Positions 3,053 through 10,982 of a DNA stretch of 39,788 nt are shown here, in pieces. A program made the position numbers and the translations under genes. Each line of letters begins with the position of its first letter. Within the stretch, counting starts at the first letter, position 1. Under the pieces are notes generated by a model. The model saw only the letters and a list, made by a program, of their open reading frames with translations, did no database searches and had not been told where the DNA came from. The DNA is from Rozella allomycis CSF55 (lineage: Eukaryota), in assembly GCA_000442015.1 (NCBI GenBank), contig KE561063.1:1-39788 (forward strand), in the 5' to 3' direction.

Positions 3053-4549
3053 TTAAAGGAATTTAGCGTAATAGTCTTGTGTTTTTCGATTCTTTATTTC
3101 GGAAATCACATATCTTATGTTATTTGTATTCAATTCACTAGATAATTTTTGGGTCGTGTCACTAAATGGGAATATCTTGCGAAACTGACCAACTTCGAAT
3201 GGGTGTCTTTGGTTAGGTTTGAAATTATCACGTTTTGCCTTTTTTGTTGGAATAGCCTGATTAGTTTTTGTATTTAGAGATGTTATTGAAGTTTTGCTTC
3301 TGCTAATAGCCGGAAGACTTTGCTTTTCTTCCACCTCATTTTCATTTTCTAATAGATCCAGGATATCATTCAGTAGAGGCTGTTTTTTTTAAAAATCATG
3401 TTGTTACTGCCTTAATTTGCAGATCAACGTCACAATCGATGGTTAGAGCCGGACTAAAATTAACCTCCAGAATCCAAGGTTTCAAGTTTTGGTCAATTAT
3501 AATGTCTATAATTAAGAGACATCACTTTTACCGAACCCATACAATTCAAAGCAATTGGTAACTTTTGGTATTTCTTGTGCTATCGGTATTATAGTTAATA
3601 GAATGATGTTTATAATTTTGCACCAAATAGGTTTGAAATCAATGCCACACGCTTCAAGATGTCGACGCAATTTCTTTAACGTCCATTTGCAACCATTCCC
3701 AATTCCATCCTTATTCTTATTTAAATTTGGCGAAAACTTATTGATGGAGGTGTTGGTCAGATGAGAAAACACGTTATCGAGTCTATTTTCACAAAATCTA
3801 TGACTAATAATGAAATCTAATACTTTTCTGTCGCAAATCGGGCCATACCCTCTTCGTATATGTAAATGACCAACGGATGATAGCTGGTCACTATAACATA
3901 ACATCGAAGATCAAACTTGTATCCTGAAACTAAAAGAGCATTCTTGATATATCTTTGTAACACAGTACTATAAGATTAATTATATCATGATACTTTCCTG
4001 CATATGTCAGCTCGTGTAAGTTTTTAAAGAGGAAAATACCTTTGCCTTGTGATTGATCTGGAGGTTTACAAAGCCATATCGCCTATAAGTTATCGTTTGT
4101 TTAAATTTACATTTTCGTTAATGTCCTTATCTTTTGCATAAACAGATAGAAATTTTTTGTATTCATTTGGGATGATAAATGTTTCAGGGAAAAAATCGTA
4201 AATACTTCCATGGACCATTTTTAAGCGCCTTAATATTCGAAAAAGAGAATCCTTTAACAAAATCAACAAACATTTACCTTCCTAGTCATCATTATTGACC
4301 TCGGAAAGTGATTCAGCTTTTGGTGATCTTGAAGATTTTCGTATTCTAATTTCGTGTATCTACTGCCTTTCCAAGTTAAATTCCAATATGGACTTTGATT
4401 TTCAATGTATTCTTTCCACCCTATTCAATCGGGAACTCTAATGTACCCCTTGACTCCAATATCTGTTTTAATAGCTCTGGTCCGTTTTCAGATATTCTAT
4501 AATATTTATCTTCTTTATCTGGTTTGGAATGGAGGTAATTTTTTAACAT
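3053..4549 (-). CDS. Tubulin-tyrosine-ligase family polyglutamylase, TTLL2-like
   Basis: Multi-exon; [71 protein letters not shown] motifs. Confidence 0.85.
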
Positions 4550-4607: not shown

Positions 4608-7530
4608 TTAAAAGGTTTCGTCTGTGTGAACATCCGTATCTTTTCCATTGATAATAAAATTTTCATTTTCATTAATGGCGACATTGCTGTAACTGCGAGA
4701 ATCAACCAATGTGGTCGGCTCAAAACCAGTCAATCCTTTAAGCCAGTAAGTAGTTGCCAAAAATATGTTAATTTAAACTCTTACCTTCACTTTGGGATCA
4801 GTCCTTTTTTCAGTAATAAATGGGCCCAAAGAATGTAATAATTGATTTGTTTTCTCTGATATTTGAATGCTCATGGGTTCCGAAGTGCTTTCCATCTTAG
4901 ATGCAAACGTAACTGTTTCTCCAAACAGACAGTAACGCGGCATTTTTATACCAACTACACCAGTTACAACAGGACCTACTTTTACAAACGAAATGTTGCA
5001 TACCAGAGTGTAAACCGATTCTAATCCTCAATTGATAATCTGGCATATGAGGGACTTTAAATCTCTTTATTCCTTCAAGCAAATGTAATGACATTTTAGC
5101 GATTTCATAAGCATGTTTATCTCCATTTCTTTTCGGTAACCCGGATGCAACCATATAGCTATCACCTATTGTCTCTACTTTATAAACGTCATATTGTTCT
5201 ATTATCTCGTCAAACATGGTGTAAAGATCGTTTAATAAATGGACAATTTGCACTGGTGAACTTTGACTAGAAAGAGTAGTATATCCAACAATGTCTGAAT
5301 AGAAAATAGTGCACATGTCAAAGTTTTCGGCCGGAATTGTTTCCCCTGCTTGAAGACTATCAACTATTTGTGCAGGAAGAATTTGCTTCAAAAGATTTTT
5401 GGCTTTTTTCTTTGCGGTACCGAGATCTGCAATTATTGATTTTACTTGATCATCTTTGGCTTTATACAATCTTTCCTTTTCTTCCTTTTCAAGCTTTATT
5501 CTTGTGAGATCTCTTACAATACCAGTAAATACACGAAAATCAGCTTCCTTTACCTCACTTAAAGAAAGACTTATCGGAAATAGTGTCCCATCTTTTTTCT
5601 TAGCAGTTACCTCTCTTGTTTTACCGACGACCTTTTTGATTCCAGTAGAAAGATAATTGGATATATATTGATCATGTTGAATAGCATGTTCCTGGGGCAT
5701 TAAGATACTCACATTTTGGTTTACCACTTCTTCCGATTTATAACCAAACATTAATTCCGCAGCGGGATTAAATCTTTGTATGATTCCTTCTGTTGTGATT
5801 CCTATAACTCCGTCAAGCACCGTGTTCAGTACAGATTGAAGCAGTTGTTTCTCCATCACCATCTTCCGTTCTGCCTGTCGCATGTTTGCATCCATTTGCG
5901 TTTCCCTCATCTGAACATTTATTATTTCATCAATTTCATTCTTTTGGGAAGTTCTTAGTGCTTTTATATCATGTTCATGATATTGGTCCAATAAGATTAG
6001 CGCTTCAGTATGTTGGACCTTTAGCTGTGATAGTTCTTGGCCTTGTTTCGCTTTTAAATCATTGAGTTGACGCCTACTTTTATTGATCAGTTCTTCGTGA
6101 TTATGGTGCAAATCTTGTAACTGGGATTCCAAGTTCTTTATTTGGGTGTCGTTTTCTCCTCTATCGAATGCCATGTCCATATCACTTGCAGCGCCATCGA
6201 AAACTGATAATTCGTCCATTTTCGAACTTGACATTGATCTTGCACTCAGCCTGGAAGAGTTGTCGACTCTATTCTTCATATCTTTCATTGCAAGAGGCTC
6301 TGGAACTTCATCATCTTCACCTTCCTCGATTATATTATCTTCAGAAGAGCTCAACATGTTTAATTGCCACCTTTTAGCTCTAACTGAAGATTGGGTCTTG
6401 TGATCGTTCAACAGGACTTTCATTTGAGCTTTGTGGGTTAACTTCATCTTTTTAATCTCCGCAGCATGTTCAGCCTTTAATTTAAGAAGTTTTATACTTT
6501 CTTGAAGTGATAACATCTTATCCTTGCTGGCATGAATTTGAATTTGATCTGACCGAAGAGCATCCTGATAAGCGACAGAGTGGGAAAGCTGTAACATGTG
6601 GGCTTCTTCAAAAAATGAGTCTTCTTTTTCAATTCTCTCATGTCTTTGTCTTAGCTCTAGCGCTTGCAACTCCCTTAACTGCTCACCTTTCTTTTTGTTA
6701 ATAGACTTCAATTGTGCCACTGTAAACTCAAACTCTTTTCTTTTGTCCTCCTTTTCTTCTTCTTTTAAGTGTCTTATTTCAAATTCAAATAGCATTCTTT
6801 GATTGGCTATATGTCGTTCTTGTTCTGCTTCCCTTTGCTTTTGTTGCCGTGAATGATGAGCTTCGACATGGAGAATAAGTGCATCGTTTCCTGCTCTTCT
6901 TTCTTTGATTGTTTGCTTTAACGATACATATGCATTTTTGGCAGCCACCTCTCGATGTATTCTTTCTGTTTGACTCTTAATTTCTCTATATTGTTCTTTT
7001 TGCATTTTCTTTTGATTTCTTCGCTCAATCCGTTCTTTTATCAATTTTTCATGAAGCTCCCTCTTTTCTTGCAATTCAAACTGTTGCCTCTCCAATAGTT
7101 TCGAGACTTCCATTTCATTGCGACTTTTGCAAAAGGCCTCCTCTTCTTTTTTGGCAAATTCCATTTCAGCTAACTGTATTTGTTGAGCTATAGCATCAGC
7201 TTCTATTCTTAAGTTCTTTGCTAATTCAATGGCCATGTTTGTTTGTTCCTTTCTTTGTGAGGCGGCAAGGGCTAACTCATGCGATACAAGATGAGAAGAA
7301 GAGTTTTCCTGGATTGAGGGTGAAACGGATATGTCATTTAAGGGTTCAGTCTTTTTCTCAGGTATTTCTTTCAGATAATCAATGGATTGCAACATTTTGT
7401 CTAGTGAAAGGGATTGTGATCGGTCATTAAGCCCTTGGCTCTGCGTGTTGTCAACTGAAATAGTACCGAGGAATGATTGCCTTTTCTTATTCCCAGAAAT
7501 TCTTCTTGGTAATGGTTCCGTTTGACTCAT
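4608..7530 (-). CDS. Soluble guanylyl cyclase-like protein: long coiled coil + FixL-type heme PAS + class III cyclase
   Basis: [40 protein letters not shown]; cyclase [57 protein letters not shown] (intron 4976-5003), final TYWLKG. The 3' end depends on a non-canonical intron at 4758-4784. Confidence 0.88.
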
Positions 7531-7586
7531 TAAAAATATAGGCGGTATCCAAGATAAACGATGTAACAACACCTTATAAATTTTAT

Positions 7587-8359
7587 TTAACTTTGCAAAT
7601 GAACTGTGTTATTCTTAGTCCGTACTTCCAATTCTTTTAAAATCTGTAGGAATTTTGTATTTGTGATTTTAGGCATTGCAGATTCCCAAAAACTACCGAA
7701 ATCAATTTGGTACTCTACAATATCGAAACTCCATACTTACTTTCTTTGTATGAAAAGGCTTGCAGGAGCATTTCCAACTTGTCTATTTGTTTGACAAATT
7801 GGGACTCTGATGTGCGTCCTTCCTCGTATTCAAAATACAATTCTTTAATTAATTGAAATCTAGTACCGACCAGATTATTCATTAACAATATTGCATCCTG
7901 TTGGAAAAACAAACAATATAGTACCTTTTCAAGATCATGCTTAACTGAAAACTTTGGATCATGCGGAGTAATGTCACCGACTATAGCTTCGGCGAGATCG
8001 TGAACCGCGGCAATCATGACACACTTTGATACATCTAAATCTCTTCTATCTTGTTCGAAGAGCATAGCAATAATAGCCATTCGATGCATATGATCTGCAA
8101 TAGATTCAGGATTTGGAACGCCCTTGCGTACCCACCCAGTTCTCTTTTCACTCTAATTTAAGAGATCAAACTGTAAAGTTACCTTCAAAGTTTCAATCAA
8201 TAGCAGAAAATCAACCATTCCTTTAACATTAAATTCAGACACATCCTCATGGCTCTCTAACTTGGTTTTAGCCAACTTTTGATGTAAAGATGGAGAATGT
8301 TTGGTAAGATTTAAAAGCTCGTTTAGTTCTGAAGCGTCAAGCGAAACGTTAAATTTCAT
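7587..8359 (-). CDS. HDDC2: HD-domain 5'-(deoxy)nucleotidase, HDDC2/YGK1/YBR242W family
   Basis: LK|SEKRTGWVRKGVPNPESIADHMHRM, VHDLAEAIVGDITP, FVKQIDKLEMLLQA; three short introns. Confidence 0.9.
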
Positions 8360-8398: not shown

Positions 8399-10846
8399 TT
8401 ATTTCATTATCTCTGGAAATTTATATGGAATGCCGACGTCTTCTTCTTCCTTTTTAGATTTCCAATAGTCCTTGTTCATCTTTAAGTTTTCCATCACTTC
8501 AGGCATCGGTAAGTAGTTATTGAACGCATCAAAAATTGGCCAGCAAATAAAATCGATAAATCCAACCTGTGCAGCGGCAACTTTAGCAGTATCACGATCC
8601 ATAAAAGGAGAAATTGGAAGACCCAATTTCTTTTCTTGATCTCCTTGATTGAAAAACTCATCTATGCACATCTTGCTCCATCTTAAATGAGTTTTCAAAG
8701 GTCTTGTTGGATGATTTACGTCACCACATTTAACAAGAACCTTGCATAAAACCAATTTGTCATCCATCTTATTTTGTGGCTGGAAATCTTCTTTTTGGGC
8801 GATCTATGTGAATCAAAATCTTAATATATACCTTTGCTTTAAAGGTAGAAACGAATTGAAAATGTAAACTAAGATCTGTTGCGAGGACGCATTCAATGAC
8901 CCATTGTCTAAACTGCTTAAAGTCCGCCTTGGAAAGACCTGCGAGAAAGTTATTTCCAGCTTTTTCCATAATCAAGAAGGAGGCAGAAACGTGATGATTT
9001 TCTAAGACTGACTTATCATTGTACAACAAAGCTTTGGGATCAGAACTATTGATGAGGAAATTGTTATTGACACCAGGGTGGTCATAATCATGAATCGCTG
9101 CTGCGATGTAAATAATTAATTGATCTAAAGGATTAAGTAGATCAATAAAAAACTCATCAGCCATGTAGTATTGAACTGCCTGGAGAACGTCCGCAGCATG
9201 CATGTGATTGTGGTCTATAATATTACAATTAATAAATTACATGGATTCGATTTGTGGTAGTTAGCTTGAATGTTTGACAAGAAATTTATGAATTTAAGCG
9301 GATCTATGTGAAAATTCTGTATCAATCCATTTTGAGTGAAAAAATGAAATCCAAGAACAAGAAGAGGGCTTTCTTTCGATATAAAATTAAAATCTAAGGC
9401 GGTGAAATCCCATTTGAGAACGTTCTCTAAAGCATTTCGGCACTGAACGATTTCTTCTTCCTGTAATTTCAAAACTTCTTTTAAAACAGTATTTAATGCA
9501 GAGTCTCCTCCAAGATATTTGCTTCCAATTTGGCTTCCTCTCACTAATGTAGTTAAGCCCTGTGAACTTCCTTTCGGACTTACGTCATTGTTTTTCTTTT
9601 TGCTGGCTAGTTCAGTAAACAGCCATTGCTAATTGTAAAATTAAAACAATTTTACTTGCGTGTTAAGATCTAATTTCACTTGATTGTCTTTGACCTGTGC
9701 TGCTAAATCAGGGGCCAATAGGTCTGGAGATTTTAATAGGCCTTGAACGTCACAAATACATTGAAATACAAACCTATCCAACGATGGCTGATTTAATAGC
9801 TGGCTAAGTATGCTTTGAGCTTTCTGCAGCGGATTAGAGAAGTCAGCGCCGTCGACGTTCATATATGAATTCTTTATAACATGTAATTGGTCTTTCAGGT
9901 TCTTATTTTTTTCATCCAAGTGATCTGCCTGAAGGAAAATTGATCTTGCGAATTTCTCCGATTCCCATACTAAAAAGTTAGTGATGATCCAAGCACAAAC
10001 AGCGAATGCTGATGTCAATGTCATATTACTGACTTCTCTGAATGATAATTGAATAATGAAAGCGACCAATAGGATGGTCGAAGAGGCAAGAGTATAGATA
10101 AAGCGAATTCTATATAGTAAATGCAATGCAAACAGTATTAATGTGAAATTTAAAGCTTCAAAACTATTAGATAATCTTGAATAGTCAACTATTCTTGGCC
10201 TAATAACCGTTTGAGAAATTGTAACACACAATATAATAAAGACACCGATATGTTGCATATAATTTTCCATGATTTTTGGCCGTCTTGATGCTAATATCCC
10301 TATAATTATCGGGAGTTCTATTCCTAACGAAACGAGCAGCGCATCAGGGGTGGAAGAGTATACACTACAAGTCTTATCATCTTTACACGGTGAGCAAAAC
10401 CACCCTGTCGGACAAAAGTTTGGATTAGATCGAATGTAGGACTCTGTTAAAGCAATTGTATTGACCCACGCCTTGCTCTGAATTTGACTTCCAAGAATTG
10501 CAATTATGTAAAAGAGAGCAAAGATAACTGCCAATATATAGGAAAAGTTTCGCCAAGAAGAAAGAAATCTGCCTACAAAAAATTTTCTAAATTTTTCTTC
10601 ACGTGTCGGATCTAAAAATGCTAATGTGTATTTGTTTCTCTCGAAATCATTGAAATTTAAGCTTTTGGTAGATAATCCGTTTTTTAATGGGATGGCATGC
10701 TCCGTATTATTGATCGGAATTTTTGAAACCAAAGGTATAGGCAAAGGTGGCTCTCTTATTGTAGGCAAGAGAATTGAATTTGCAGGCGCAGATTTTCTTC
10801 TTAATTGTTGTAAGCCTTGAGCCCCCGTTTGAGCTTGGAGTGACAT
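8399..10846 (-). CDS. Class I cyclic-nucleotide phosphodiesterase with an N-terminal ~6-TM domain
   Basis: Spliced YHNHMHAADV, AAIHDYDHPGVNNNFL, VLENHH, LATDL, KCGDVNHP, EFFNQGD, QVGFIDFI; six hydrophobic segments in 9950-10560. Confidence 0.9.
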
Positions 10847-10982
10847 GACCGATACAAAAACTCGCTCACGACGATGGTAACCAAGCAATTTTGATATAAA
10901 GAGTTATAACTTTTATGCATCAAATATTTTATATGAATTAAGGGTATTCTCCATTTATGAAAATTCTGAGAGAAATGTAAAG

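Follow-up and report, generated by a model that had tools for sequence, protein, structure and literature searches.

Positions 1 to 39,788 of contig KE561063.1 of Rozella allomycis CSF55 (GenBank assembly GCA_000442015.1), a stretch of 39,788 nucleotides hereafter called the window, encode on the minus strand a protein, 955 amino acids long in our gene model, in which a PAS domain is followed by a helical linker and a class III cyclase domain. By its sequence, predicted fold and key residues, the PAS domain is of the FixL/DosP heme-PAS type. We tentatively propose, at somewhat less than an even chance, that the protein is a heme-based gas sensor, probably for O2, and that it forms the alpha-like half of a guanylyl cyclase heterodimer with its paralogue ROZALSC1DRAFT_30547 (hereafter P0010; other proteins compared are likewise given by P numbers). 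The gene had been singled out in an earlier reading of the nucleotide sequence (the original prediction) as a fusion of a FixL-type heme-PAS to a guanylyl cyclase, that is, a candidate O2-sensing producer of cyclic GMP (cGMP) in a fungus-like eukaryote; the host is the zoosporic fungus R. allomycis.

The affinities of the sensor domain were assessed by a phmmer search of a 126-residue PAS segment against all PDB chains. Seven distinct FixL sequences came first (E values from 7.3e-27 to 5.5e-22), followed by six sequences of EcDOS/DosP (1.2e-13 to 5.8e-12), and the top 13 distinct PDB sequences thus all belong to FixL or EcDOS/DosP. The next match, 10jx (6.4e-5), is titled a heme-binding PAS. 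An AlphaFold2 model of the domain, built from a 25-row alignment, reached a mean pLDDT of 88.7 and a pTM of 0.74, and when this model was compared with the PDB using Foldseek, FixL structures occupied ranks 1-20 and DosP/EcDOS the ranks through 28. The best matches, to FixL 8js5, gave TMq values of 0.92-0.93 and a root-mean-square deviation of 1.1-1.2 Å over 144 columns; identity to the solved FixL heme domains is 39-47%, at deviations of 1.0-1.2 Å. Pfam, the AlphaFold2 model and Foldseek all recover the PAS fold, a five-stranded sheet with an F-alpha helix. Five of the six sequence and structural features by which we judged membership in the heme-PAS class are present, the exception being the arginine at the place of BjFixL Arg206. 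The kinship with FixL that the original prediction had put forward is thereby upheld, the likeness being well above what chance would give, and no grouping with non-heme PAS domains was found. A reading of the domain as a LOV-type flavin sensor was considered and rejected, given that the first LOV or non-heme PAS appears only at an E value of 1.5e-4 in the phmmer search, and that LOV domains are found from rank 31 onward in Foldseek.

For SmFixL, the Introduction of PMC10765370 names His194 (BjFixL His200) as the proximal heme ligand, Arg214 (BjFixL Arg220) as the residue that hydrogen-bonds bound O2, and Ile209, Ile210, Leu230 and Val232 as distal hydrophobic residues. His619 and Arg639 of the window protein (residues are numbered throughout from the translation that starts with the ATG at 7530) align with the former two, and Val634, Val635, Leu655 and Leu657 with the latter four, three of these being conservative replacements rather than identities. 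In a 41-row alignment comprising the spliced window model and 40 PAS-cyclase relatives, the proximal His is kept in 40 rows and the distal Arg in 35. Residue frequencies in a set of 133 PAS domains (40 fungal and 93 other, with a FixL clade of 26) are similarly high: the His is found in 100% of the fungal, 95% of the other and 100% of the FixL-clade domains, and the Arg in 88%, 91% and 100%, respectively. On the strength of these residues, we infer that the PAS domain binds heme and O2. O2 is the favoured ligand because Arg639 matches the residue that hydrogen-bonds O2 in FixL.

The pocket departs from that of FixL at Asn625, which stands at the place of BjFixL Arg206 (SmFixL Arg200). Asn is found here in 27 of the 41 family rows and Arg in one; in the FixL clade, 96% of the 26 domains have Arg. 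In the same paper, this Arg is described as the salt-bridge partner of a heme propionate, used in switching, and the SmFixL variants R200A, R200Q, R200E and R200H are reported to keep the oxy, deoxy and CO heme spectra, although they autoxidise more readily and signal differently. Because the heme spectra are retained in these variants, Asn625 speaks for altered coupling rather than against heme. The two pocket residues named in the original prediction, the proximal His and the Arg of the G-x-x-R motif, are present, whereas the equivalent of BjFixL Arg206 is not.

Behind the conserved D-L-T motif, the linker is predicted to be helical; in the AlphaFold2 model, a helix spans positions 129-149 of the modelled segment, from the end of the PAS domain to the last residue modelled. 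The length of the PAS-cyclase linker is constant in 38 of the 41 rows, the exceptions, with gaps, being P0010, P0023 and P0044. Partial PF07701 (HNOBA) labels are attached to the relatives P0014, P0025, P0037, P0040 and P0049, and no H-NOX family is found among the Pfam matches of an 861-residue translation of the window gene at E values up to 0.1.

The catalytic domain matches PF00211 (Guanylate_cyc) over residues 733-850 (E 5.8e-34, 117.7 bits) and again in the second exon (Table 1). The closest solved cyclase is the domain of the atrial natriuretic peptide (ANP) receptor (164 bits, E 2e-47), with soluble guanylyl cyclase (sGC) at 3e-28 and the rhodopsin-guanylyl cyclase entries 6ao9/5oyh at 1e-16. 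Across the family alignment, each of the two metal-binding Asp residues is kept in 40 of 41 rows, the guanine-specifying Glu in 40 of 41, and the guanine-specifying Cys in 37 of the 38 rows covering that site. The legend of Fig. 2 in PMC9730499 names the same E and C positions as guanine-binding in the cyclase BeGC1. The transition-state Asn/Arg pair expected from four residues behind the Cys motif, by contrast, is Thr865/Lys869 in the window copy: among the aligned segments, GDTVNTASRMES (N and R) is that of the ANP receptor and GNNVTLANKFES (T and K) that of the sGC alpha subunit 4ni2_A, and the ...VTFASKMES of the window protein matches the alpha-subunit state, ...VTLANKFES. The helix and the class III cyclase with GTP-specifying residues were anticipated correctly, and the metal-binding Asp residues, the Glu and the Cys fit the proposed cGMP producer, but with Thr865/Lys869 in place of the Asn/Arg pair this description is too simple for the window copy. 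The original prediction had missed both the T...K in place of N...R after the Cys and a 28-nucleotide intron that splits the cyclase domain.

In class III cyclase dimers, one chain contributes the pair of metal-binding Asp residues to an active site, and the other chain contributes the Asn/Arg pair together with the base-specifying pair; full turnover depends on Asn and Arg. A homodimer of the window protein may be weak or dead, because this pair is Thr865/Lys869. The second Rozella gene of this architecture, P0010, has both Asn and Arg, and its PAS domain likewise retains the His and Arg of the pocket. By the logic of class III dimers, a heterodimer of ROZALSC1DRAFT_27730, the public model of the window gene, with ROZALSC1DRAFT_30547 would therefore, like sGC, combine a complete site with a degenerate one, and the alpha-like state of the window copy suggests such a division. 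We infer a heterodimer of the two on these grounds.

The state of the pair varies across the family. Among the 36 rows that hold this part of the domain, 21 have Asn and Arg, 12 have a residue other than Asn together with Lys, and one each has Ala and Arg, Asn and Gln, or Thr and Gln; Asn is lost in every one of the 12 Lys rows. In a cyclase-family tree of 38 rows (three short ones being left out), the window copy and P0010 pair as sisters, the former having the longer branch, and the non-Asn/Lys state occupies several separate places: the Rozella window copy, a Blastocladiomycota clade, Boothiomyces/Terramyces, Polychytrium and one further row. As a side observation, five of the 12 non-Asn/Lys copies (P0015, P0017, P0018, P0020 and P0028, all from Blastocladiomycota) lack the distal Arg, having Thr, Lys or Ile instead, and among the 21 Asn/Arg copies only P0049 lacks it, along with the His. 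The joint loss of the distal Arg and of the Asn/Arg pair may reflect correlated decay, or a retuning of sensor and catalyst.

Among the 120 matches listed in a database search, all 30 other named proteins with PAS and cyclase come from zoosporic fungi, with the genera Polychytrium, Entophlyctis, Nowakowskiella, Synchytrium, Batrachochytrium, Boothiomyces, Rhizophlyctis, Terramyces, Globomyces, Clydaea, Polyrhizophydium, Allomyces, Blastocladiella, Catenaria, Coelomomyces and Sorochytrium represented alongside a Chytridiales sp. and the second Rozella gene. A PAS-only search yielded 51 proteins among 273 candidates. Outside the family, histidine kinases of bacteria stand closest, with 45-53% identity and many of them labelled FixL by JGI, and the PAS domains of the other fungal family members, at 51-53% identity, are comparably close. 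For a PAS tree (FastTree, midpoint-rooted, no outgroup), 133 of 159 hits of a hidden Markov model were retained, those covering fewer than 95 profile positions being dropped. All 40 fungal domains group together in a single exclusive clade, nested among bacterial FixL-like domains, in agreement with the bacterial-type sensor proposed at the outset; the sister of this clade comprises the repeats of P0002 and P0122. This topology is compatible with a heme-PAS of bacterial type having been acquired once, no direction of transfer being claimed from a midpoint-rooted tree.

An exhaustive HMMER search with the 295-residue segment spanning PAS, linker and cyclase retrieved 139,766 proteins at E values up to 0.001 and 3,365 at up to 1e-30, mostly general cyclases or PAS proteins. 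The top matches (P0169-P0203 and others) are not members of the fungal family, being proteins of about 1,650-5,500 residues. Most of the giant proteins in the top rows have 13 matched FixL-like PAS stretches, and nearly all of the repeats keep the His motif. Among ten proteins scanned of the 150 listed, three are giants, two of them with a TmcB-type TPR region, and four (P0204, P0224, P0254 and P0260) are multi-PAS proteins ending in a cyclase. A regular-expression count over 137 new proteins, which is rough and unaligned, finds the His motif at its FixL position in 680 of 754 PAS domains and a nearby Arg as well in 316. For their part, P0002, P0122, P0204, P0224, P0254 and P0260 carry 3-9 tandem FixL-like PAS domains, and all but P0122, for which only PAS matches were found, end in a class III cyclase.

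The features of the gene are collected in Table 1. The PAS domain, which had been placed at 5500-5830, was recovered at 5503..5841 on the minus strand, in agreement with that placement; all the peptides quoted for it are present, the PAS peptide in a 903-codon open frame (7608..4897) of the list of open reading frames. The public model ROZALSC1DRAFT_27730 (P0003, 874 amino acids, annotated as hypothetical) is 100% identical over the query region; it starts at Met46 of our model and is spliced otherwise in the cyclase, where the strand before MPRYCLFG is lost and the C-terminal tail is an unrelated one. We consider the cyclase mis-spliced in P0003 because removal of the 28-nucleotide intron brings the conserved strand back, in register with all relatives in the family alignment. 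The homology detected by blastp in the N-terminal region starts at residue 7 (P0014) or 38 (P0010), and the ATG at 7530 is therefore favoured. This region matched no Pfam family over residues 1-555, yet it is common to 36 of 40 family proteins by blastp, with P0010 showing 35% identity over 531 residues (E 1.5e-58). A structure search of the Atlas with P0003 returned for it generic coiled-coil look-alikes only, at TM below 0.5, and no feature match.

Table 1. Features of the heme-PAS-type cyclase gene and of neighbouring genes in the window (coordinates in nucleotides of the window)
Feature	Position	Strand	Remarks
Whole gene, 955 amino acids	4608..7530	minus	Pieces 7530..5004, 4975..4785 and 4757..4608; stop 4610..4608
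N-terminal region, residues 1-555	5866..7530	minus	E/K/Q/L-rich, coiled-coil appearance, family-specific
FixL-type PAS, residues 564-676	5503..5841	minus	Candidate heme pocket; Pfam PAS_9 3.8e-13, PAS 1.6e-12
His619 (CAT)	5674..5676	minus	Aligned with proximal heme ligand SmFixL His194/BjFixL His200
Asn625	5656..5658	minus	At BjFixL Arg206/SmFixL Arg200 place; departs from FixL
Arg639 (AGA)	5614..5616	minus	Aligned with distal Arg BjFixL Arg220/SmFixL Arg214
Linker, residues 677-732	5335..5502	minus	After D-L-T, predicted helical, into LLKQILP...L..G element
Class III cyclase, first part, residues 733-843	5004..5334	minus	PF00211
Asp746	5295..5293	minus	Metal-binding (by alignment)
Glu786	5175..5173	minus	E of KVET, guanine-specifying (by alignment)
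Asp790	5163..5161	minus	Metal-binding (by alignment)
Intron 1, 28 nt	4976..5003	minus	GTATG...GTAG; splits Gly843 codon; placed by homology
Class III cyclase, second part	4785..4975	minus	PF00211, 5.2e-17, 62.5 bits
Cys858	4931..4929	minus	C of RYCLFG, guanine-specifying (by alignment)
Thr865	4910..4908	minus	At place of transition-state Asn
Lys869	4898..4896	minus	At place of transition-state Arg
In-frame piece with TAA, 27 nt	4758..4784	minus	Starts GTAAG, ends TTG, no AG acceptor
C-terminal piece	4608..4757	minus	Same frame, open reading frame 4608..4772; last cyclase strand ..TTYWLKG..GFEP; ends ...ETF and stop
Tubulin-tyrosine-ligase-family gene	~3300..4424	minus	Many short exons
HD_3 domain gene	7715..8152	minus	
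Cyclic-nucleotide phosphodiesterase	within 8399..10903	minus	PDEase_I in two exons, E 5.9e-47 and 1.1e-29
Cytochrome b5-like heme-binding domain gene	30635..31384	minus	E 6e-20

The 3' end of the gene model is provisional. After ...DPKVK, the reading frame enters GTAAGAGTTTAAATTAACATATTTTTG (4784..4758), a piece with an in-frame TAA. Beyond this piece, and in the same frame, lies the last cyclase strand, and the C-terminal piece aligns with the TYWL/TYFL..GK.GF.. ends of the relatives, although on its own it has no Pfam match. The public model of P0010 has a nine-residue insert exactly at the place of the 27-nucleotide piece, ahead of its GKG..TYWL strand, and this insert looks like a retained 27-nucleotide intron. 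Because the two coincide in position, we treat the piece in the window gene as a probable intron, which would be non-canonical, or an assembly error, although it may also hold a real stop. The public model of P0010 itself begins inside a RabGAP-TBC domain and misses 28 residues of the PAS-cyclase linker, and is probably merged or mis-spliced.

The mechanism that we propose would run as follows. A soluble protein of about 955 amino acids, in which an N-terminal coiled coil precedes a single FixL-type PAS domain and a helical linker joins the latter to a class III cyclase of animal-like type, would carry on His619 a heme of the b type. A diatomic gas, most likely O2, would bind on the heme's distal side and be hydrogen-bonded by Arg639, and the cyclase dimer would receive the ligand state by way of the D-L-T motif and the coiled-coil linker, as the kinase does in FixL. 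Synthesis of cGMP would then change with the ligand state, the sign of the regulation being possible either way. P0010 would contribute the Asn and the Arg to the one complete active site, with the window copy as the alpha-like half. The cGMP produced might steer zoospores, a role whose plausibility comes solely from the analogous rhodopsin-cyclase circuit that PMC9730499 describes for Blastocladiella.

Several observations weigh against this proposal, or against parts of it. The coupling may differ from that of FixL, since Asn625 replaces the Arg used in switching. FixL binds NO and CO too, according to PMC10765370, so that either gas is also a possible ligand here. The in-frame TAA stands nine codons ahead of the last conserved cyclase strand, and the product may be truncated if the 27-nucleotide piece contains a real stop. 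The repeated origin of the non-Asn/Lys state could equally mean that it is a tolerated variant of the active site. In the rows compared, six of the seven from Blastocladiomycota are of the Lys type, the seventh having Ala and Arg, and the Rhizophydiales (Boothiomyces, Terramyces) have Met/Lys copies only; such lineages would either need no Asn/Arg partner with a PAS domain or have one outside the 120 matches listed.

Part of this evidence enters into a different explanation, which takes the original prediction at face value: the window protein would be a guanylyl cyclase that senses O2 as a homodimer and needs no partner, with Lys869 taking over the function of the transition-state Arg and the Asn dispensable, as it would be elsewhere in the family. 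The evidence for the heme-PAS serves this explanation as well as it serves the heterodimer, both metal-binding Asp residues, the Glu and the Cys are intact, and the replacement in copies that lack Asn, being Lys in all 12 Lys rows and never random, suggests retained function; furthermore, nearly all of the rows compared from Blastocladiomycota and from Boothiomyces/Terramyces are of this type. Nevertheless, T...K is exactly the state of sGC alpha, from which the Asn/Arg pair required for full turnover is absent, and the same genome holds a paralogue with the canonical Asn and Arg, next to which the window copy sits on a longer branch. We regard a self-sufficient homodimer as rather unlikely. 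That the window copy is a decaying duplicate with little or no function is a very improbable account, even though Thr865/Lys869, the in-frame TAA in a 27-nucleotide piece without an AG acceptor and the longer branch of the two Rozella sisters speak in its favour. Against it, the first exon of 2.5 kb is part of a frame open for 903 codons, His619, Arg639, both Asp residues, the Glu and the Cys are kept, the frame continues past the TAA into the conserved ..TYWL..GF.P, and the 27-nucleotide insert at the same spot in P0010 points to an intron.

The PAS domain might, alternatively, hold no heme, and either bind some other small ligand or act as a module for dimerisation or signal transmission, in which case the cyclase would be regulated otherwise, for example through the N-terminal coiled coil. 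Asn625 in place of the heme-propionate partner would suit such a role, as would the loss of the distal Arg in six of the 41 family rows and of the His in one (P0049); moreover, Pfam matches generic PAS models only, and heme cannot be proven from sequence. On the other hand, the His is present in 40 of 41 rows and conservation falls on the same columns as in bacterial FixL, no LOV or other cofactor-binding PAS scores better than 1.5e-4 as opposed to 7e-27 for FixL, and, as stated in PMC10765370, variants of SmFixL altered at Arg200 retain their heme together with O2 and CO binding. A PAS domain without heme is, in our estimation, quite improbable, and we return to the heme-based heterodimer as the preferred, if tentative, interpretation.

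Comparison with characterised systems helps to define what is distinctive about the window protein. With FixL, it shares the sensor PAS, including the aligned proximal His, distal Arg and hydrophobic residues, as well as the D-L-T motif leading into a coiled-coil linker and a dimeric output. Unlike in FixL, however, that output is a eukaryotic class III guanylyl cyclase instead of HisKA/HATPase, the host is a fungus, there is no FixJ partner, Asn replaces the Arg206 of BjFixL (Arg200 of SmFixL), and a coiled-coil N-terminal region of 555 residues is present. EcDOS/DosP resembles it in that a heme-PAS governs a cyclic-nucleotide enzyme, and provides the second-best solved relatives (E ~1e-13, TMq 0.64-0.77), but it is farther than FixL, has a cyclic di-GMP phosphodiesterase as output and is bacterial. 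In animal sGC, a heme gas sensor is likewise coupled through a coiled coil to a guanylyl cyclase dimer, and the window protein shares the T/K state of the alpha subunit; its predicted sensor, however, is a heme-PAS rather than an H-NOX domain, and its catalytic domain is nearer to those of the receptor guanylyl cyclases. The alpha subunit of sGC is not known to bind heme, whereas both Rozella paralogues keep the heme His and the Arg. Atypical sGCs bind O2.

Closer to hand, BeGC1/RhoGC of Blastocladiella is also a fusion of a sensor to a guanylyl cyclase in a zoosporic fungus, with a coiled-coil linker, the same E and C motifs and a homologous cyclase, but its sensor is a light-driven membrane rhodopsin, whereas the window protein is predicted to be soluble and to sense through a heme-PAS. 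The multi-PAS cyclases (P0002, P0204, P0224, P0254 and P0260) likewise place a class III cyclase behind FixL-like PAS domains that keep the His; they differ in carrying 3-9 tandem PAS domains rather than one. P0002 further differs in having Lys/Asp as specificity residues of the adenylyl type and a hydrophobic helix at its C-terminus, and its Asn/Arg pair is canonical.

The gene is a nuclear fungal gene. Its GC content is 0.37, compared to 0.35 for the window, and the other genes of the window are ordinary eukaryotic ones, including those for La, CUE, the C-terminus of a DEAH-type helicase, Forkhead, a cytochrome b5-like protein, cactin, a tubulin-tyrosine-ligase-family protein and an HD domain protein. 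Bacterial contamination was rejected in view of the spliceosomal intron inside the cyclase domain, the equal GC content and the eukaryotic neighbours. Directly upstream on the same strand lies a gene for a cyclic-nucleotide phosphodiesterase, preceded by a 420-codon open frame without a Pfam match that by eye contains long hydrophobic stretches; the HD_3 domain gene is also upstream on that strand. The location of a cyclase beside a phosphodiesterase is suggestive but may be due to chance, adjacency in eukaryotes being weak evidence for a functional cluster. Directly downstream is the gene of the tubulin-tyrosine-ligase family, members of which modify tubulin. The cytochrome b5-like gene, to judge from its predicted heme-binding domain, means that Rozella encodes at least one other heme protein within the window.

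Gas-sensing cyclases known so far rely on H-NOX in the animal sGCs and on a globin in the adenylyl cyclase of Leishmania. If the PAS domain binds heme, the window protein and its relatives would, to our knowledge, represent an uncharacterised class of eukaryotic gas sensor, with a FixL-type heme-PAS driving the synthesis of cGMP. In public databases, the PAS-cyclase gene appears only as hypothetical or 'PAS domain-containing', and a literature search, with subscription journals outside its reach, turned up no publication on a guanylyl cyclase with a heme-PAS or FixL-like sensor in fungi, chytrids included. A survey of chytrid cyclases (PMC9730499) that lists 17 from Blastocladiella draws their Pfam architectures in a figure, and the word PAS is absent from its text, figure and supplements aside; the architecture may already appear in that figure or in the supplements.

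The co-occurrence of an Asn/Arg and a Thr/Lys copy in the same genome would constitute an independent case of the sGC-style division into a complete and a degenerate site, and a compact, soluble, gas-switched guanylyl cyclase could find use as a tool, following the example of the rhodopsin cyclase from these fungi. A bolder scenario, which we consider speculative and unlikely, is that Rozella, and by extension the common ancestor of fungi, relies on an sGC-like obligate heterodimer of two FixL-type heme-PAS cyclases, the window copy with Thr/Lys as the alpha-like one and its paralogue as the canonical one, that serves as an O2 sensor and supports cGMP-steered aerotaxis through the machinery of Blastocladiella phototaxis, the heme-PAS having come from bacteria before the zoosporic lineages split and having later been reused in other protists, in multi-PAS cyclases and in giants with at least 13 repeats. 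If the proposal made here for the window protein is true, early-diverging fungi would have a direct O2 sensor, which raises the question of whether the zoospores of chytrids, blastoclads and Rozella find or avoid oxygen through cGMP.

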